The notes under the pieces are model-generated. The model did not search any database. It was not told the origin of the DNA and saw nothing but the letters and a program-made list of their open reading frames with translations. From an uncultured Bacilli bacterium (GTDB lineage: Bacteria > Bacillota_I > Bacilli_A > RF39 > UBA660), in NCBI GenBank assembly GCA_944358825.1, contig CALVSA010000002.1, positions 17,707 through 81,706 on the forward strand: a stretch of 64,000 nt of DNA, read 5' to 3'. A program made the position numbers and the translations under genes. Below are positions 2,962 to 38,434 of this stretch, piece by piece; position 1 is the stretch's first letter, and each line of letters begins with the position of its first letter.

Positions 2962-3160
2962 AAAAAAGATGGTATAAAAGGACGAGAAAACCCGCGGTAC
3001 CACCTTTTTTTATAACTATGTTATACACTCAATTCTTAACGCGATTAAACGATTAAAACTAAAGGGTGAATTCATATTTAATAACTAGCTCTACTCTCAT
3101 CATCTAGAACTTTCTGTATAGTTATTTTACAAATACTACTACTTCCTTATTATTGTTTTA
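2962..3160 (-). promoter_or_regulatory. T-box riboswitch leader (Phe specifier) controlling the small ORF-pheS-pheT unit
   Basis: The minus-strand transcript carries the conserved T-box core AAAGGUGGUACCGCGGG (plus coordinates 2992..3004). A terminator follows in which GGUGGUA pairs with UACCAUC and is followed by a U-run (2964..2976). Upstream there is a GAAUUCA specifier-like triplet, UUC for Phe. Confidence 0.6.
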
Positions 3161-3703
3161 TTAAATAGTCATTAATTCTTTTTCTTTTTCTTTTAATTTT
3201 TCATCAACTATTTTGTTAAAATCATTAATTAATTCTTGAACTTTTTCATTAGCTCTTTTTTCTTCATCTTCACTTAACTCTAAATTATCAATTGCCTTAT
3301 TTGCATCTTGTCTGATATTACGAAGAGCAATTCTTGCTTCTTCAGCGATTTGTTTTACTTGTTTTACTAGTTCTTTTCTCCTATCTTCTGTTAAAGCTGG
3401 AATAACTATAAATATTGATTCACCATTATTATTTGGTGTTAATCCTAAATCAGCTTCAAAAATTGCCTTTTCTATATCTTTTAAAATACTTTTATCAAAT
3501 GGCTTTATTGATAATTGACGAGCTTCTGGAATAGAAATATTTGCTAGTTGTTTGATTGGAGTGTCAACTCCATAATAACTAACTGTTATGTCATTTAATA
3601 TATTAGGATTTGCTCTACCCGCTCTTACGTTAGTAAATTTATGTTCTAATGAATTAATTGATAATTCCATTTTTTCTTTGGCATTTTCTAATACACTTTC
3701 CAT
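3161..3703 (-). CDS. frr: Ribosome recycling factor
   Basis: 180 aa with the typical RRF length and sequence pattern (VRAGRANPNIL.., DLGLTP). Confidence 0.9.
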   Translation of the reverse strand: MESVLENAKEKMELSINSLEHKFTNVRAGRANPNILNDITVSYYGVDTPIKQLANISIPEARQLSIKPFDKSILKDIEKAIFEADLGLTPNNNGESIFIVIPALTEDRRKELVKQVKQIAEEARIALRNIRQDANKAIDNLELSEDEEKRANEKVQELINDFNKIVDEKLKEKEKELMTI

Positions 3704-7031: not shown

Positions 7032-7229
7032 TTATTTCTTCACATGAATTAAATTTTCATATACTTCTTCTAATGCTCTGCCGATATTTTTTGCTGAATG
7101 ATATTCTGATTCTTTCATTTGATAGTAACCAGTTCTTTCCATTTGTTTGCTACGACTAGCTACTATATATACTAACTCATATTTAGAATCAACAATATTT
7201 AGGATTTTATCAATTGAAGGATAAATCAT
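7032..7229 (-). CDS. rpoZ: DNA-directed RNA polymerase subunit omega
   Basis: 65 aa. MIYPSIDKILNIVDSKYELVYIVASRSKQM matches the Firmicute RpoZ/YloH N-terminus MLxPSIDxLxxKxDSKYxLV. Confidence 0.7.
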   Translation of the reverse strand: MIYPSIDKILNIVDSKYELVYIVASRSKQMERTGYYQMKESEYHSAKNIGRALEEVYENLIHVKK

Positions 7230-7307
7230 TTATATCACACTCCCTCTTCCCTACTAATACTAGAATATAATATTATCTTTTAAATTGCAATATGTTTTAC
7301 ATAAATT

Positions 7308-29218: not shown

Positions 29219-29551
29219 CTATATACAAATAATAAGGTGCCGGTAATATTTCATCACGTCCATTGAAAAATGTTTTTTTCCATTTTGAATTTCTCTCCAC
29301 GGGCCAACTGGAAGATTATATTCGTTTTTTAAGATTACATCTAGTGTATCATTTGCTGGGCTTACAACGACATTTGAAAGAACTTCTTCTTTCATAAGAA
29401 GTTTATCAGTACTTGGTCTTAAGTCTGTTTGAACATGTCCATTAAATCCAGGAACATTAAAACTGTAATGTCCGCCACCTGCAAATACACTCATTGTAGA
29501 AGTAATGCAGGTAACTGCAAAAATTGCAATAAGTATCTTTAAATATTTCAT
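29219..29551 (-). CDS. Small secreted protein (signal peptide), possibly extended by a frameshift at an A7 run
   Basis: Signal peptide MKYLKILIAIFAVTCITSTMSVFA. A second frame is open for about 40 codons downstream of a poly-A tract. Confidence 0.4.
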   Translation of the reverse strand: MKYLKILIAIFAVTCITSTMSVFAGGGHYSFNVPGFNGHVQTDLRPSTDKLLMKEEVLSNVVVSPANDTLDVILKNEYNLPVGPWREIQNGKKHFSMDVMKYYRHLIICI

Positions 29552-32001: not shown

Positions 32002-32051
32002 ATGGCGTCCCCGATTGGAATTGAACCAACGACCTATCGCTTATGAGGCGA
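32002..32051. repeat. attL-type core repeat (tRNA 3' half)
   Basis: Matches 37842..37891 at 49 of 50 positions. Confidence 0.8.
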
Positions 32052-32079
32052 AGGCATTTTCCTATTATGCTACAGGGAC
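32003..32079 (-). tRNA. tRNA-like gene with anticodon CAT (Met/Ile2-type), probably the element-derived attP-side hybrid copy
   Basis: 77 nt that fold as a cloverleaf with a perfect 7-bp acceptor stem and a D stem GCAT/ATGC. The anticodon stem has a U-U mismatch at its top. It has 3' CCA. Its 3' half is identical to that of tRNA-Arg at 37843. Confidence 0.5.
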
Positions 32080-32529
32080 ATATACCTTAATTTTAAAATA
32101 TTAATATCAAAATCAAGGTTATTTTTTCAAATTTTCATTGTTTTTTTTAAAGATAAAGACAATTTTTCGCGACTATTTTGCGACTATCTTATTTCTTTAA
32201 AACCTGTCCTTCCTCGTAAAATAAAGGTTTCTAATACATTTTCCTTTATTTTAAACAACTCCTTAGGAGAGAAGAGTTTTAAATTTCAAAATCAATCCGT
32301 TTTTTTCAAAACCCTTGTTTTTTCTAACAAAACCGCGATATTTTTAAAATTTAATTTTCAATACAAAGTGTAGATTTTAAATAATTTTAAATATAACTAT
32401 TTAATTGTTGCGACAAAATCGCGACATCTAACTTTGAAATTCTGTCCTAATTAGTTCTTCGCCTCAAGAACTCCCATTTCTCATCAATATTATAACAATT
32501 TTTTTCTATAATAACAACAACTATATAAT

Positions 32530-34308
32530 TCATGGAAGTGGAATTAATATATATTCATTACCATATTTTTCTTTATAATATTCTAACTTATCCCACACAT
32601 TATTAAAGTCAATTTCTTCTACATTTATTTTTTTAAATATAGGATATCTATTATCAAAATATTTCTGAATTTTAGACAACTTGTTTTCCCTATCCTCATC
32701 AGCATTATTAACTGCATATTTGAGTAAATCATCTATTTCTTTTGTAGGAGCAAAATTAATTCCTGTATATAAAGAAAGCATTTGATTAAAAGTAGTTTTA
32801 ACTTCTCCCTTTGCATTATAATATTTATCAAATACAGAAATTGCATCTAGTGTTTTATCTTCATTTGAATGTGTATAGATAAAAGTAGTAGATAGTTGTG
32901 AATGTCCCATTAACTTTTGAACATCAGCTGGAGATAAGTTTGGATTTTCATTCATTTGCATAGTACAATAACTATGTCTTAATCCATGTAACGATACATT
33001 TCTTATTTCTGGATGTCTTTTTCTAAAATCTAACCATTTACTAGAAACAGAATCAGGGAACATTATTCCCCCATATTTGCTTAAAAACAGATTTTCCGGT
33101 GGATTATAATTATCAAATTTTCTTTTAAACCTTTGAATAATCCTATCTCTTAACTTAAAATATTCTCTAATAATTTCTGTGCAAAATAATGGTATTGGGA
33201 CATTTCTAACACTATTTTTTGTTTTAGTATCTTTTTCAACTATTTTTTGTTTTTCCTTATCTCAAACGACTGCTCGTTTTACTGAAATTGAATTGTTTAT
33301 AAAATCAATGTCATCAATGTGTAAGCCAAGTATTTCTCCTCTTCTTAACCCTGTGCATATTGAAATTGTAAACATAGTTTCAATTAATAACCCTTCTTCT
33401 TTCAATAAATCTAATATTTTCATTAATTCTTCTCGATTGTAGGACTGCTTTTCTTTTTTAGAAACCTCGGGTGTCTTTACTTTTAACACAGGATTAGTTT
33501 CAATATAGTCCCAAGCAACTGCTTTATTAAGAATCTTCCTCAAAAGTCTATATACCCCATTAACAGTTGTTTCAGATAATTTTTTTACACTACCATCTTT
33601 TTCTTTTCTTTCTTTATCTCTATCTTTTAAATTGTTAATAATTTTTTGAATTACTAATACATCAATTTTATTTAAAGGATAATTAGCAATCTCTGGCAAT
33701 ATATATGTTCTTAATGAACTCTTACCACTTGCAACAGTTGTAGGACTTAACTCCACTTCTGCATATTCTTTATAATAAATTCTTACAAAATCAATAAATC
33801 TAATATTCCCTTTATCACTTTTCCCATTTTTTAATTTTAGCTCTGCTAATCTCTTATCCCTTTCCTTTTTAGCCTGTGCTAAAGTCCCTTCAAATACTTT
33901 TGAATAGTATTCTCCCTTTTGACCATTTTAGCCACCCTTTCTAATAAATATCCTATATTTTTTCCCTTTTTCAATCTCATATAAGTATTTATCTACTTTT
34001 TTAGTATCTTTCCCTGATACTGTTGCCCGTGGTTTTGTTGGATTAGTTTTAGTTTGCTTTTTTTCCTTTGCATCAAATTCAGCAAAGAAATAAGTTTTCT
34101 TCTTTTCAGTTTCTAAACATAATCCATTTTCTTTTAATTTATTATCTCTTAAATTTCTGGCCTCATCTAAACTACCATTAATATATTGATCAAAACTAAT
34201 TCGAATATTACGTGTCTTATCTACTTTTAAAAACTTTACCCTATATCTGTTTTCAGAAACATAATAAATATATTTATCTACTTTTTCTTGCATTTTTCCA
34301 CCCTCCAT
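32530..34308 (-). pseudogene. Tyrosine site-specific integrase, disrupted by an in-frame TAA at 33928..33930 and a frameshift near 33250..33265
   Basis: Three ORF pieces are collinear with one phage integrase. 33928..34308 is the arm-binding N-terminus. 33262..33756 is the core-binding region and box I R (TGLRRGEILGL). 32530..33063 is the catalytic HGLRHSY...GHSQLSTTFIYTH region. The first two pieces are in the same frame, separated by a single stop. The second and third are in different frames. Confidence 0.75.
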
Positions 34309-34568
34309 TAAATTTCATATTTATTTTTTTCATTATTCATAAAAAAACTCCCTCCTTTTGACCAAAGAGAGAAAAAAATCTTTTCAAATTAATATTTTTG
34401 TGTATAATATTAAGTGTGTTGGATTTATTAATCTCCTTGGTCGGAAATTATAATAAACCAACACATTTTATTTTGCAATATTTTTTTGCCAGAAAATAAA
34501 GACTTTTCGTTAGAAATTTGGTACAATTAGATATATGAAATGTTATTCATATTTAGGAGATGATATTT

Positions 34569-35387
34569 ATGGAAAAATTAAATCTAGATACTTTAGAAGA
34601 AACATTGTTTGTTCCAATGAGAGGAAGAGTCTTTTGCAGTAGAACTTTTCCAGATACTTTTAAAGATGAAAAAGCATTGGAAATAGCAAAAGAGTTACCA
34701 GAAGAATATATGAATTTAGAAAGAGAAACAGAATATACTTTAATGGCTAGTGCTATTAGAAGTAAAAATATGGATATTTATATCAAAAAATTCTTATCAA
34801 AGAATCCTAATGGAACAATTATAAATGTTGGATGTGGAATGGAAACAACATTCTATAGAAATGATAATGGTAAATGTATATTTATTGAAATGGATTTAGA
34901 AGAAGTAACATCAATGAGAGAAAAAGTTTTTGGCAAGAATAAAAGAGATATTATACTAACTAAATCATTACTTGATTATAGTTGGATTGAAGATGTTAAA
35001 AAAATAGCAAAAGGTCCATATTTAATAATTGCAAGTGGAGTGTTCTATTATTTTCCTAAAGATCAAATAATAGATTTTTTAAGAAAAGTAAAATTATTAG
35101 GTAATGTAGAAATATTATTTGATACTGTTTCTAAAAGTGGAATGAAGAGAACAAAAAAATATATGAAACAATTAGGAAAAGAAGATGCAACAATGTATTT
35201 CTATGTAGAAAAAGGAAAAGAATTAATTAATGAAATTGGAAATAATTGCAAATTAATTGATGAACATGATTTTTATGATTTTACCGAAAATAAAAGTAAA
35301 TTTAAATTTAAAACAAAACTATATATGGTTATTTCAGATAAACTTCATATGGTTAAAATGATACAATTAAAATATGGAGATGAATAA
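34569..35387 (+). CDS. SAM-dependent methyltransferase, TcmP/LCM (leucine carboxyl methyltransferase-like) family
   Basis: IINVGCGMETTFYR resembles the VVnLGaGlDTRayR motif of the LCM/TcmP family. An AGGAGA RBS precedes ATG at 34569. Confidence 0.55.
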   Translation: MEKLNLDTLEETLFVPMRGRVFCSRTFPDTFKDEKALEIAKELPEEYMNLERETEYTLMASAIRSKNMDIYIKKFLSKNPNGTIINVGCGMETTFYRNDNGKCIFIEMDLEEVTSMREKVFGKNKRDIILTKSLLDYSWIEDVKKIAKGPYLIIASGVFYYFPKDQIIDFLRKVKLLGNVEILFDTVSKSGMKRTKKYMKQLGKEDATMYFYVEKGKELINEIGNNCKLIDEHDFYDFTENKSKFKFKTKLYMVISDKLHMVKMIQLKYGDE

Positions 35388-35388
35388 T

Positions 35389-36165
35389 ATGAATATATTA
35401 TTGGGATTATTGATACCTTTTGTTGGAACCACATTAGGAGCTGCAATGGTATTCCTAATGAAAAACAAATTAAATAAAAAGGTCGAAAAAGTATTATTAG
35501 GTTTTGCTTCTGGTGTTATGGTAGCTGCTTCCGTCTGGTCATTACTTATTCCATCAATTGATATGGCAAAAGAGCAAAATATAATAGCTTGGTTACCAGC
35601 AACCGTGGGATTCATTTTAGGAATTGTATTCTTATTAATATTAGATAATATAATTCCCCATTTACATATTAAAAGCAAAGAACCAGAAGGATTAAAATCT
35701 AAATTAGGAAAATCTGCAATGATGGTATTAGCTGTAACACTTCATAACATTCCAGAAGGTATGGCTGTTGGAGTTGCTTTAGCTGGAGCAATTAGTGGTA
35801 ATAGTACGATTACCGTGATGGGAGCAATTGCTTTATCAATAGGAATTGCAATTCAAAACTTCCCAGAGGGTGCGATTATATCAATGCCATTAAAAGAAGA
35901 AGGAAATACTAAAAGTAAGTCATTTATATATGGTACATTATCAGGTATAGTTGAACCTATATTTGGAGGACTTACTATTTTACTAACTTCATTAGTAGTT
36001 CCAATTTTACCTTATTTATTATCATTTGCAGCAGGAGCTATGATATATGTAGTTGTAGAAGAATTAATACCAGAATCACAGGTTGGCAAACATTCAAATT
36101 TGGGAACGATAGGATTTGCGTGCGGGTTTATCTTAATGATGATCTTGGATGTAGCATTAGGTTAA
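35389..36165 (+). CDS. ZIP-family divalent metal transporter (ZupT-like)
   Basis: Eight TM helices with the ZIP signature HNIPEGMAVG and the second motif QNFPEGAII. Its start codon abuts the methyltransferase stop, so translation is coupled. Confidence 0.8.
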   Translation: MNILLGLLIPFVGTTLGAAMVFLMKNKLNKKVEKVLLGFASGVMVAASVWSLLIPSIDMAKEQNIIAWLPATVGFILGIVFLLILDNIIPHLHIKSKEPEGLKSKLGKSAMMVLAVTLHNIPEGMAVGVALAGAISGNSTITVMGAIALSIGIAIQNFPEGAIISMPLKEEGNTKSKSFIYGTLSGIVEPIFGGLTILLTSLVVPILPYLLSFAAGAMIYVVVEELIPESQVGKHSNLGTIGFACGFILMMILDVALG

Positions 36166-36376
36166 AATAGATCGGAAGATTAAGATATTGTGATTAATGA
36201 GATAGTTGAAAAACCTATCTTTTTATTTTTTTGTCTTATTATAAGAAACGCGAAAGGAAATATGCTATTGCATTATGCTATTGCATTATAAAAACTTAAA
36301 TAAAAAACAAGTTTTTTCACAAAAGTCATAAAAAGGCAATAAAGCCCCTTACCCCATAAAAAGTATTATGTGATTA

Positions 36377-37790
36377 TTAAGTTAATAATGTTTTTTTAGT
36401 ATAAATTAGAATACTATTAATAATCTTTCTACCAGAAGTAGTCAAATAATATTTATTCTTATTGGCTACTTTTTTAATAAGTCCATGGGCTTTTAATTTT
36501 GATAACAGTCTAGTAGTCTTGTTAATAGTTTTCTTATCTTCACTATTTTCAAAAATATTTTTTCTAATCATTTTGTTAGTAAAACCATTAATTAAGTATT
36601 CGCCTTTAGATATTTCAGAAAATATTTTTAAATTTTGTTCATTTAAAATATTAATTCCAGAATAAACTTTATTATTAATTTCTGCTCTTTTAGATATCCT
36701 TTCAATTTCCTTTAAAGGAACTTCATCAATATTAATATCAGGTAATGCTTCTATATATCTTTTTATAATGTTTTTACTTATTTCTACATATCGATATAAA
36801 TTTGCAATACTTTTTCCCATAGGAACCCATTGTTTTGTTTCTACAATTTCTCCAGTTTCATCATTTTCTTTAGTTTTCAACACTTTAAAATCCTTAGGAT
36901 TATTGATAGTAACTTCAATCCTTAAATTGTTTCCTTTATCATACATTTTGATTTGATTATTATTAATCTTAAATTTTATTCGGTAACCTTGATACCTGTT
37001 TCTTAAATCGGAAACAATTTCTCCTTTTTTTAAAGTATTAATATAATTCACATTTCTACCAAAGAAAGAATATATATCTTCACTACTAAATGTAAAGTAT
37101 GTAGTTTCAACCAGTGTCTTATAAAATAAACTTAAGTCTTCACGACTTTTAAAATTAATATCAGTTGCAAACTCACATTGATCAATACACCAGTAATATG
37201 AATGATTAAATATGTTTCTAATTTTAGGTAAATGAATATTTATCTTCTCAACTAATCCATCAAAAGAATCAGATATTTTTTTATTCAAAATACTATCTGC
37301 AAGTTTTTGAGATTTTTCAAAATCTTCAATATATGAAAAAGAATTGTTATACATTTCATATTTAATATTATTCTTATCAAGTAATTTAGATAAATATTCT
37401 CTTCCATTGATATAAATTTGGACATTATAAGGAAACCAAGTTTGGATTTTTAGAAACATTAAACCAAACTCTTCATCATTAAAGTAAAAATAATAATGCT
37501 TACATTTAGTAGGTCTTGGGGGAACCTCTAACTTTTTCTATTTCTAAATAATGATACTCTTGCAATTCCTTTAGTATGGATCTAATTCCATCTCTACCCT
37601 CTTTACTTATAGAGCAAAGACCTGCCAAAGAATAATCCCAATCTTCTGGCAAACTTAACATAAACGATAATAACCCTTTAGCTTTATACGATAAATTTTT
37701 ATCTCTTAAGTGATAATTAGACATAACAGTATAGTTATTATTTTTTTCTATTTTAAAAACTGACATATTTACACCTCCTAACATTTGCAA
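36377..37790 (-). pseudogene. Replication initiator with a RepA_N-family N-terminus, split by a frameshift at a C5 run (37478..37482) into 94-aa and 360-aa ORFs
   Basis: The N-terminal ORF carries the RepA_N pattern YTVMSNYHLRDKNLSYKAKGLLSFMLSLPEDWDYS. The downstream ORF's frame stays open upstream across GGTTCCCCCAAGACC, where the two frames overlap. Confidence 0.5.
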
Positions 37791-37841
37791 AATAAAACTG
37801 ATTTAGTTTATAGTATCTAAATCAGTTGAATTAACACAAAA

Positions 37842-37891
37842 ATGGCGTCCCCGATTGGAATTGAACCAACGACCTATCGCTTAGGAGGCGA
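37842..37891. repeat. attR-type core repeat (tRNA-Arg 3' half)
   Basis: Matches 32002..32051. Confidence 0.8.
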
Positions 37892-37919
37892 TTGCTCTAT
37901 CCTACTGAGCTACGAGGAC
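37843..37919 (-). tRNA. tRNA-Arg (anticodon CCT)
   Basis: 77-nt cloverleaf with acceptor GUCCUCG/CGGGGAC, D arm GCUC-AGUAGGAUA-GAGC, anticodon arm AUCGC-CUCCUAA-GCGAU, T arm GUUGG-UUCAAUU-CCAAU and an encoded CCA. Confidence 0.8.
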
Positions 37920-37924
37920 AGATG

Positions 37925-38434
37925 CTAAAATCTTACTAATACAAGCATCAATACAGCAGCAATATTTTCAAGTTTTAAGAAACATAATTTATGATAAGAT
38001 AAAATAAACTCATAGGCTGCAACTACTTTATCTACCATACTAACTAGCCAACTTTCTAAATATTTAGGGGGTCTAGTAGGTATTAACGGAAACATATGCG
38101 AATAAATTATATCTTTTTGCATATCAGATAAAACAAAGTATTTGTTTGCATTTTTTAAACACTTTTTAGGATGAGTAAATGCACTTAAGCTATGCTCTTT
38201 TTTTGTTAATTGATCATCTGTAAAAAAGTCATGTAATAGGCTAGCAACTGCTGTTTCTTTGTAATTTAACTTTAATTTTTTACTTATTTTATAAGAAAAA
38301 TAAGAAACTCGTAATGAGTGTTCTAATCTAGTAATTCCATGATGACGACAATTATTTATTTTTAAAAATTCTTCATTTGTTAAGACATGATTTATTATTT
38401 TATTATACTCACAATCTTTTTGAAAATGATTCAT
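37925..38434 (-). CDS. HD-domain phosphohydrolase (169 aa)
   Basis: HG..R..HSLRV ... LLHD metal-binding motifs. Confidence 0.55.
   Translation of the reverse strand: MNHFQKDCEYNKIINHVLTNEEFLKINNCRHHGITRLEHSLRVSYFSYKISKKLKLNYKETAVASLLHDFFTDDQLTKKEHSLSAFTHPKKCLKNANKYFVLSDMQKDIIYSHMFPLIPTRPPKYLESWLVSMVDKVVAAYEFILSYHKLCFLKLENIAAVLMLVLVRF

Follow-up and report, generated by a model that had tools for sequence, protein, structure and literature searches.

We analysed a 64,000-nt window, to which all positions refer, from an uncultured Bacilli bacterium (RF39; UBA660; contig CALVSA010000002.1 of assembly GCA_944358825.1), using metagenome assemblies as the comparison material throughout. Within it lies a 5.9-kb degenerate, stripped-down mini-element in a tRNA-Arg(CCT) gene, in which a methyltransferase gene and a zinc-type (ZIP) transporter gene are intact and the integrase is inactive (Table 1). 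Consistent with the original prediction made from this DNA, a 50-bp direct repeat is present at the two ends with 49/50 matches, the sole mismatch being the middle base of an anticodon (32044 versus 37884).

Table 1. Features of the mini-element and its tRNA genes, with positions in the 64,000-nt window.
Feature	Position	Strand	Remarks
Direct repeat, left copy	37842..37891		50 bp; tRNA positions 28-76 plus one base
Direct repeat, right copy	32002..32051		50 bp
Host tRNA-Arg(CCT), attL side	37843..37919	-	Host 5' half, anticodon-loop core, 3' half next to P' arm
Core CTCCTAAG (anticodon loop), probable crossover region at left junction	37880..37887	-	Homology to the attP junction of contig L021 begins exactly here
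P' arm TTTTTGTGTTAATTCAACTG..., with hairpin	37791..37842	-	Between tRNA 3' end and rep
rep'	37506..37790	-	First ~88 initiator codons (wHTH), then 8 out-of-frame codons and a stop
Fusion junction, 13-bp microhomology AAAAAGTTAGAGG	37525..37537	-	Common to rep and the IS-like gene
IS-like remnant	36272..37537	-	3' 1266 bp (two-thirds) of a 1872-bp multicopy element
Methyltransferase-ZIP module	34519..36479	+	Own TGnTAnAAT promoter-like start plus adjoining IS end
ZIP-family metal transporter (ZupT-like), intact	35374..36165	+	Pfam Zip 84.2 bits, gathering 35.1
LCM/TcmP-type class I SAM methyltransferase, intact	34560..35387	+	Pfam LCM (PF04072) 26.1 bits, cut-off 22.3
Tyrosine integrase pseudogene	32530..34308	-	592 codons, single frame, two nonsense codons
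P arm (P1) of integrase module	32270..32529	-	GTCGC pair 32410-32425 (candidate arm sites)
Internal core CTCCTAAG, attR core of integrase module	32262..32269	-	Identical to the anticodon loop
Y-X	32080..32261	-	Hairpin 32218-32252; second P-arm-like stretch with GTCGC pair 32169-32184
Hybrid tRNA	32003..32079	-	5' half of element type (E5), 3' half of host type; anticodon CAT here

The repeat had been read as the 3' half of a tRNA, which is correct insofar as both copies are the 3' ends of tRNA genes. Neither is a fragment, however: ARAGORN and Rfam both return full-length tRNAs, at 67.4 bits for 37843-37919 and 60.2 bits for 32003-32079. The cloverleaf is the minimum-energy fold of the tRNA-Arg at 37843-37919, and the adjacency of this gene to an HD hydrolase gene is kept in the loci of 21 related species, which identifies it as the host gene and makes the HD hydrolase a conserved core neighbour of the tRNA rather than the accessory island gene it had been taken for. 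In the window, the left junction rebuilds tRNA-Arg. The P' arm that follows is also found 3' of the tRNA 3' half in contig L021, where the attP junction was observed, and in the occupied sites of other species. Integration has split the target tRNA-Arg and regenerated it, leaving direct repeats at the two ends; a full hybrid tRNA and an internal core, the third, come in addition. That the locus is an integration hotspot, as had been suggested, is evident from three different occupants within the same species and from tandem arrays in other species.

The integrase was originally described as being in three pieces. Its domains (Pfam Phage_integrase and SAM-like) are indeed spread over three open reading frames, but these all lie in one frame and are split by nonsense substitutions (TAA at 33928-33930 and TGA at 33262-33264, TGA being a true stop in this genome), with no indel or frameshift relative to intact copies. 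Intact 592-aa homologues exist at 95-99% identity. The catalytic R..HxxR..Y motifs (GLRRGE, HGLRHS, IYTH) align with those of the solved integrases 3nkh and Tn1549 Int (6en0), and the protein, which at 592 aa is unusually long, has two copies of an arm-binding-like motif at its N terminus and ~100 extra residues at its C terminus. All relatives keep the P1 arm alongside int, and the window's arms share 92-99% identity with their counterparts in elements whose integrase is intact. Homology between the related integrase modules ends in every case at the core at 32262-32269, beyond which other contigs have, between them, seven different tRNA 3' halves. This internal core, 218 bp inward of the right repeat copy, is the boundary at which the integrase module itself recombines, and we infer that crossover occurs within its 8 bp.

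Adjoining the P' arm, a frameshifted RepA_N gene had been proposed. We found none: the 94-aa open reading frame encodes a replication initiator's N-terminal wHTH (PHROG 4707/428, replication initiation) whose only Pfam match is HTH_36, with none to RepA_N (PF06970), and the gene is truncated at codon ~88. Intact initiators of 258 aa and 264 aa are present in L005 and L021, and their homology to the window's rep' stops at 37525. Across the fusion junction, the open reading frame at 36377-37459 is the C-terminal 360 aa of a 510-aa IS-like protein. Full 1872-bp copies of the IS-like element, identical to one another, occupy at least four chromosomal loci; its ends are direct, not inverted, and its gene has no transposase match in Pfam or NCBIfam. 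The 360-aa frame, which is frameshifted in five related contigs, was also considered as a Rep candidate and rejected, being the 3' part of this unrelated multicopy gene.

The methyltransferase and ZIP genes, predicted to be intact, are undamaged in 10/10 contigs. Their longest open reading frames overlap by 14 nt, whereas in gene-caller output ZIP begins 2 nt past the methyltransferase stop. The proteins resemble LCM/TcmP-type O-methyltransferases and ZupT/ZIP importers in that both score above the Pfam thresholds. Unlike ZupT equivalogs, the ZIP protein scores 126 bits against NCBIfam ZupT, under the equivalog cut-off of 252, and is therefore assigned to the ZIP family and not to the equivalog. 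Homologues of the methyltransferase carry PF04072; a search for a solved structure or characterised relative of it returned none. The pairing of the two genes recurs at 65% identity, in a methyltransferase homologue that likewise adjoins a ZIP gene, beside a CDF exporter. An identical methyltransferase protein is indexed in 186 blocks of the contig collection, and the whole module is found at ~99% identity in unrelated contexts in contigs L041 and L048, both of which also hold IS91-family Y2 transposase genes (directly adjacent to the module in L041). Such near clonality in gut metagenomes, spanning several species and genomic contexts, is the sequence pattern that recent spread under selection would leave, and the trait selected is likely metal acquisition.

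The tRNA at the right end differs from the host gene in its 5' half by compensatory D-stem changes (GCTC/GAGC versus GCAT/ATGC), and it has a U27-U43 mismatch and a cloverleaf that is not its minimum-energy fold. Its anticodon is polymorphic among 12 same-species contigs, CAT in eight and CCT in four. The mismatch in the repeat is a SNP segregating in a full hybrid tRNA rather than a sign of wear in an attachment site. The E-type 5' half belongs to a complete, perfectly paired tRNA in L002 and L049, and the 5' half of the hybrid derives from such a complete tRNA-Arg(CCT) carried by the element family; relatives have the complete form, of which the window retains the 5' half inside the hybrid.

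Y-X, the next tRNA 5' half and its core together form a 221-bp unit, U, which is found after broken host tRNA-Arg 5' halves in at least 13 contigs of other species. At 9/11 species loci with an E-type tRNA, a broken host 5' half is followed by CTCCTAAG and then Y-X, and the broken halves vary between species; at a tenth (L060) the contig begins 18 bp upstream, inside X. Four additional contigs with a broken host half and an E-type tRNA came from metagenomes. Junctions that leave the host tRNA unrestored are found in L002, L054, L062, L070, L078, L081, L083, L088, L097, L115 and L125-L128, with L125 containing both junctions of a single integrated element. Two tandem copies of U are present in L083, and L002 has U at both ends, which indicates that the core before Y and the one within the element tRNA are interchangeable in recombination. 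In L078 and L060, housekeeping genes directly border the complete E-type tRNA and the host 3' half is not visible, an arrangement unexplained by a simple two-core model. A promoter call in X was no better than chance in AT-rich DNA.

Where relatives are intact, they are conjugative elements, and their hosts are uncultured gut Bacilli of low GC content. The integrases of the family are 585-592 aa long, and the backbone associated with an intact integrase includes a TraG/VirD4-type coupling protein (present, for example, in L029), a 2115-aa SNF2 helicase and an excisionase-like gene. Of the genes for conjugation, none for a coupling protein, type IV secretion or a relaxase is present in 32002-37935, so classification of the window copy as an ICE was rejected; it is a derivative. 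Copies of the 5.6-kb mini-element with an identical rep'/IS' junction are present in at least two other species (L115 and L083), and L045 and L049 have it with the integrase intact. These copies contradict the proposal of decay and shrinkage in place and imply that the mini-element formed once and then spread. Judged from the sequences compared, it would already have been reduced on arrival, with the integrase the only loss seen in this species. The original prediction had suggested looking for an empty site. All 12 same-species contigs were occupied, single-tRNA sites occurred only in more distant species, and sites located by the HD orthologue that lacked the element's P' arm or rep were likewise confined to distant species. 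The predicted empty junction had no match in the JGI metagenomes. Because neither an empty site nor one holding U alone was recovered for this species, the order of events given below is a reconstruction.

From the anatomy, junctions, polymorphisms and distribution that we observed, we consider it very probable that this segment represents a mini integrative element, composite and inactivated, which occupies the host tRNA-Arg(CCT) at its anticodon loop, with the derivation that follows and a hybrid tRNA based on U. The original interpretation is thereby supported in part: an integrative element in tRNA-Arg with an inactive integrase and a preserved methyltransferase and ZIP transporter is what we find. 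The ancestor would have been a member of the conjugative-element family with a tyrosine integrase recombining at CTCCTAAG, of whose backbone only the two ends appear to survive, namely the left junction with P' arm and 88 rep codons, and the integrase with P arm and core. A deletion across the 13-bp microhomology would have joined rep to an IS-like element beside the methyltransferase-ZIP module, giving a 5.6-kb unit with the methyltransferase and the ZIP transporter as its only intact genes. This unit presumably spread between species, and the integrase nonsense codons would have been acquired in this one. U may be seen as a hairpin, a P-arm-like stretch (possibly with a promoter), the 5' half of the element's own tRNA-Arg(CCT) and a core. 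It is usually followed by the matching 3' half, so that the element would supply a whole replacement tRNA on breaking the host gene; here, U lies between the integrase-module core and the displaced host 3' half, and a hybrid tRNA results. Expression and function of the element-borne tRNA are presumed in this scheme.

The same anatomy could have another history, in which a circle carrying U integrated via the second core, in the anticodon loop of the tRNA it carried, and produced both hybrids in one step, rather than entering a site that already held U. The interchangeable cores implied by L083 and L002 speak for this route, but it predicts an E-type 3' half in the left tRNA, which is host-like at 10/10 left junctions, and we regard it as rather unlikely. 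We attach about the same doubt to the view that the element is not immobilised in practice, its intact att sites and arms allowing a co-resident full-length relative to act on it in trans, excising and transferring it as with integrative mobilizable elements. The close match of its arms to those of integrase-positive elements agrees with this, as does the fact that the mini-element has crossed species boundaries; another strain (L005) also has an intact rep at the same site, meaning that the variant there is not truncated at the rep/IS junction. Against it, no empty site was seen among the same-species contigs, and neither an excisionase gene nor a recognised origin of transfer or relaxase is present in it. 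A single 5.9-kb element bounded by the 50-bp repeats as attL and attR, with the right copy a displaced tRNA 3' fragment, decay in place and a mismatch due to wear, is very improbable. The repeat is real and the inactive integrase adjoins one end, yet the right copy sits in a complete tRNA with its own 5' half, the integrase module stops short of it at the internal core, the rep'/IS' junction is shared with other species, and CCT and CAT alleles are both in circulation. Finally, two independent, conserved native tRNA genes (Arg and Met) with 3' halves alike by family similarity and unrelated genes between, which the original prediction had itself set against its reading, would account for both scoring as tRNAs but can be dismissed almost entirely, given that the 'Met' gene is CCT in 4/12 same-species contigs, that its 5' half is element-type and stands beside broken host tRNAs in many species, and that at most related-species loci tRNA-Arg is followed by sequence unlike the element's P' arm or rep.

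Turning to known systems, the anticodon loop is reportedly one of the sublocations of integration into tRNA genes in Williams' scheme. The classical comparison is with Islander-type genomic islands, which use tyrosine integrases and tRNA genes (PMC4383910). The composite mini-element shares with them a tyrosine integrase by one end, a tRNA target, crossover in the anticodon loop and a displaced fragment marking the other end, and since the element carries a tRNA 3' half (attP in L021), the host gene is restored in the same way. In contrast to Islander-type islands, the family also has a second right arm, U, that supplies a whole tRNA without restoring the host gene, and the window has two full tRNAs and three cores in place of a gene and a fragment. 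By analogy, the closest counterpart appears to be the tRNA-dependent lysogeny of actinobacteriophages (Guerrero-Bustamante & Hatfull 2024, PMC10865867), alongside which the Lj965 prophage of Lactobacillus johnsonii is mentioned. Both systems have a short common core in a tRNA gene, and in both the junction fails to restore the host tRNA (in our case, in the relatives). They differ in that ours involves conjugative or mobilizable elements from gut Bacilli in place of phages, and in that the attachment region itself contains our replacement tRNA, at ~190 bp from the core. The anticodon loop of this tRNA can serve as another core, so that U occurs in zero, one or two copies and hybrid tRNAs arise. 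Restoring and replacing forms also coexist within one family. Firmicutes ICEs and mobilizable elements of the Tn916/Tn1549 type are similar in that Tn1549 Int (6en0) is among the closest solved integrases and the intact relatives carry a coupling protein, SNF2 helicase and excisionase-like gene, but the window copy is without transfer, excision or complete replication genes.

The strategy of breaking and replacing a host tRNA may thus extend to conjugative and mobilizable elements of abundant uncultured human-gut Bacilli, with the replacement built into the attachment site itself. For annotation, the lesson is that an element may truly end elsewhere than at a repeated tRNA 3' half. More tentatively, and with somewhat less than even confidence, we suggest that the portable 221-bp cassette plus an element 3' half installs a complete, self-sufficient tRNA-Arg(CCT), and that the second core in its own anticodon loop lets cassettes be gained, lost, left behind and re-paired with host halves. 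The spare hybrid would have shifted to CAT, the predominant allele, and may be read as Met or Ile2. If so, one integrase could use the tRNA-Arg genes of many species whose acceptor stems would fail to pair with a borrowed 3' half. The anticodon-shifted hybrid tRNA offers a natural case for studying tRNA identity change. Viewed as such a cassette, the hairpin is terminator-like and the arm sites lie with a possible promoter. One point against our main reading is that the 3' half of the left tRNA is host-like, not E-type, which calls for an element variant with that half (compare L021) or gene conversion between the repeats.

The direct repeat on which the original prediction rested was confirmed, with 49 of 50 positions identical between 32002-32051 and 37842-37891 and the middle anticodon base (32044 versus 37884) as the sole difference. 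Its reading as a tRNA 3' half is correct for the sequence but not for the idea of a lone fragment, as ARAGORN and Rfam recognise two complete tRNA genes and each 50-bp copy is the 3' part of one of them. The 5' halves of the two tRNAs are unlike each other, with compensatory changes in the D-stem. Since both copies lie in complete genes with differing 5' halves, the downstream copy is more than a displaced fragment. The earlier observation was partly confirmed and its interpretation partly supported.

Features of the integrated element and the two tRNA genes in the window
Feature	Position	Strand	Details
tRNA-Met(CAT)	32003-32079	minus	ARAGORN; Rfam 60.2 bits
Integrase pseudogene	34308 to 32530	minus	Three ORFs forming one 592-codon frame
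IS-like remnant	36272-37537		Last 1266 bp of a 1872-bp element
tRNA-Arg(CCT)	37843-37919	minus	ARAGORN; Rfam 67.4 bits

We used related loci, all from metagenome assemblies and many of these independent, to locate the attachment sites. Homology to the integrase module spans 34337 to 32262 in every relative and ends there, at an internal CTCCTAAG (32262-32269) that is the same sequence as the anticodon loop. On the 3' side of this core, seven distinct tRNA-Arg 3' halves are found in various contigs, with flanks that differ too. One contig, L021, has the order integrase, P arm, CTCCTAAG, tRNA 3' half, TTTTTGTGTTAATTCAACTG, rep, an attP junction from a circular form or a tandem array. This junction, and the core shared with the anticodon loop, indicate that the anticodon loop is where the element family recombines, and that the element's own 3' half normally restores the tRNA gene.

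Beside this 'restoring' mode, comparison of the junctions identifies what we read as a 'replacing' mode. Beyond the internal core, the window has a hairpin (Y), a stretch like a second P arm (X) and E5, the 5' half of another tRNA-Arg. X shares its AGGACAG start and its GTCGC pair with the first P arm; a promoter scan of X gave no signal above background. E5 is joined at the anticodon loop to a host-type 3' half in the window, and lies within a complete, perfectly paired tRNA-Arg(CCT) in the same-species contig L002 and in L049, another carrier of the element. Across species, this E-type tRNA nearly always has Y-X upstream and, before Y-X, a host tRNA-Arg 5' half that varies by species and ends exactly after CTCCTAAG. 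The combination of broken host half, Y-X and E-type tRNA was found at 9 of 11 genome loci and on 4 further metagenome contigs; at a tenth locus, L060, the contig starts 18 bp upstream, within X. L125 contains a small element complete with its two junctions, in the order host 5' half, core, Y-X-E tRNA, P' (the arm beside rep), rep, further genes, degraded integrase, P arm, core, host 3' half, and the contig L083 carries the 221-bp unit Y-X-E5-core (U) twice in tandem. Together, these two structures imply that the core preceding Y and the element tRNA's anticodon loop can stand in for each other as crossover sites. The core-Y junction had 0 matches in an IMG/VR scan.

A simple two-core model does not explain the loss of the host 3' half at L078 and L060, where the complete E-type tRNA abuts housekeeping genes and no host 3' half is visible. 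The layout listed for these two loci (L078 283-550; L060 1-100) is host 5' half, core, U, complete E-type tRNA and housekeeping genes, the neighbours being RecD2 and SpoVAD, and RlmN and a PASTA kinase. The only E-type tRNA-Arg(CCT) without Y-X upstream, L055 7396-7472, has its own TATAAT-like promoter, and the species that carries it may be the natural source of the element-borne tRNA. At L115 (~7200-7300), the loop of the broken host 5' half is mutated, reading CCACCTGAG in place of CTCCTAAG, as would be expected of a dead stub; the change would also prevent re-use of that core. Three loci (L068, L072, L095) hold a second U-cassette lineage, ~78% identical, with a variant E-type tRNA (acceptor GTCCTCG/CGGGGAC), and the cassette family has therefore diversified and is probably old.

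The window, with the layout host 5' half, core, 3' half, P', intervening genes, integrase, P1 (the P arm of the integrase module), core, U, host 3' half, combines the two modes. We favour a route in which a restoring-form element inserted at a site already holding U, as each of the ten left junctions carries a host-like 3' half. A U-bearing circle inserted via its own tRNA is another possible route to the same layout, against which those host-like left junctions count.

To place the native target, we surveyed uncultured gut Bacilli MAGs, one genome per species, and obtained 70 tRNA-Arg(CCT) loci. In the window, 5 bp separate the tRNA-Arg from the end of an HD-domain gene upstream; an orthologue of this gene (37-57% identity) accompanies 21 of the 70 loci, mostly immediately upstream of the tRNA, and at most of the 70 the sequence 3' of the tRNA has no match to the window element. 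This conserved and mostly element-free neighbourhood marks the tRNA-Arg(CCT) gene as the native target and the HD gene as a core gene, not the accessory neighbour it had been taken for. The suggestion of an integration hotspot fared better, being supported by two variants at the same site in this species, L002 with an extra U and E-type 3' half and L005 with an intact rep. The proposed comparison with relatives yielded no same-species empty site: a look-up of flanking proteins found none, and the host 3' half plus right flank had 0 matches in a JGI metagenome scan. Elsewhere in the window, 29219-29551 is strain-variable, with a 110-aa ORF here and in L011-L015 and 39-aa and 129-aa ORFs in its place in L001, L016 and L017, and a T-box leader (2975-3162, minus strand; Rfam 97.8 bits) has no relation to the element.

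Among same-species contigs, the hybrid tRNA reads CAT in the window, L011, L012, L013, L016, L017, L043 and L047 and CCT in L001, L002, L044 and L046, so the repeat mismatch is a C-to-A polymorphism of a spare gene. The repeat copies of L001 and L044 differ at another place, position 57 of the T loop, suggestive of gene conversion between them. The hybrid has a U27-U43 mismatch and a minimum-energy fold other than the cloverleaf, and is probably a weaker tRNA. ArgRS requires C35 and CAU is the chief MetRS determinant; under these identity rules, the CAT hybrid is predicted not to insert Arg at AUG.

The integrase is indeed broken into three ORFs, through two nonsense codons in a single frame (TAA 33928-33930 and TGA 33262-33264), with no indels relative to other contigs; L002 has TAC at the first site and L012 TGG at the second. 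Every same-species copy carries one or two stops. Rescue by reading TGA as Trp was rejected: TGA ends 7/51 ORFs and 68/68 Trp codons are TGG, making TGA a true stop in this genome. For two pairs of the TAA/TAC, TGA/TGG and CAT/CCT sites all four haplotype combinations occur, which implies recombination or recurrent mutation. Gut metagenomes commonly contain intact copies of 586-592 aa at 95-99% identity, the wider family at 61-75% identity is large, and alignment with the solved integrases 3nkh and Tn1549 Int matches the catalytic R, HxxR and Y residues. In L029, a related contig, an intact integrase gene closes a backbone with a TraG/VirD4-type coupling protein, an XRE regulator, a 2115-aa SNF2 helicase, three small genes and an excisionase-like gene (HTH_17 match in the L020 counterpart), from which we conclude that the parent family is conjugative. 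A prophage origin was rejected, as no phage structural genes were seen and relatives carry a coupling protein. Plasmid and phage databases gave matches only to generic ZIP genes and tRNAs; MT839188, a 7.8-kb 'Bacteriophage sp.' record, is in fact a chromosomal fragment.

In its restoring mode the family has the layout of a textbook tRNA island, and its replacing mode follows the logic of tRNA-dependent lysogeny, described for actinobacteriophages with a possible Lactobacillus prophage case (PMC10865867). What is new is a tRNA-replacing mode in a conjugative or mobilizable family, with the replacement tRNA within the attachment region and both cores in use, leaving cassettes and hybrid tRNAs behind.

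The replication initiator described as frameshifted is instead a fusion. The similarity of its 94-aa ORF to replication initiators is confined to their N-terminal wHTH; intact versions have 258 and 264 aa (L005, L021), and homology to them ends at 37525. The adjoining 360-aa ORF corresponds to the C-terminal portion of a protein of 510 aa, in which Tyr140, Tyr142 and Tyr323 are invariant; the element that encodes this protein occurs in identical copies at at least four chromosomal sites within single samples. At the joint (37525-37537), AAAAAGTTAGAGG is common to rep and the IS-like gene, so the fusion arose by a microhomology deletion. In a related genome, a diversity-generating retroelement (bAvd and reverse transcriptase; L032 9058-10469) lies ~1.5 kb from one IS-like copy. 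An identical rep'/IS' junction occurs in two other contigs, L115 and L083, with HD orthologues only 46-50% identical to that of the window, and the mini-element has an intact integrase in L045 (where the adjoining host 3' half and flank are different) and L049. The 5.6-kb unit thus had a single origin and then passed between species; of the decay originally proposed, inactivation of the integrase, the only loss detected in this species, stands.

As predicted, the cargo is intact beside decayed genes. The LCM-type methyltransferase and ZIP transporter genes, both above Pfam thresholds, are intact in 10/10 contigs with at most three differences per gene; the neighbouring IS remnant is frameshifted in five of the same contigs. 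PDB sequence searches gave nothing significant for the methyltransferase or the IS-like protein. The methyltransferase-ZIP module (from 34519) recurs at ~99% identity in unrelated contexts on two contigs that also carry IS91-family (Y2) transposase genes, lying directly upstream of one in L041 (6648-9898) and on the same contig in L048 (131-8708), a hint that rolling-circle transposition moves it. A tie between the module and metal handling is plausible: elsewhere, a 65%-identical methyltransferase also adjoins a ZIP gene, at a locus that holds a second LCM gene, a PEMT-type methyltransferase, a phosphatase and a CDF exporter.
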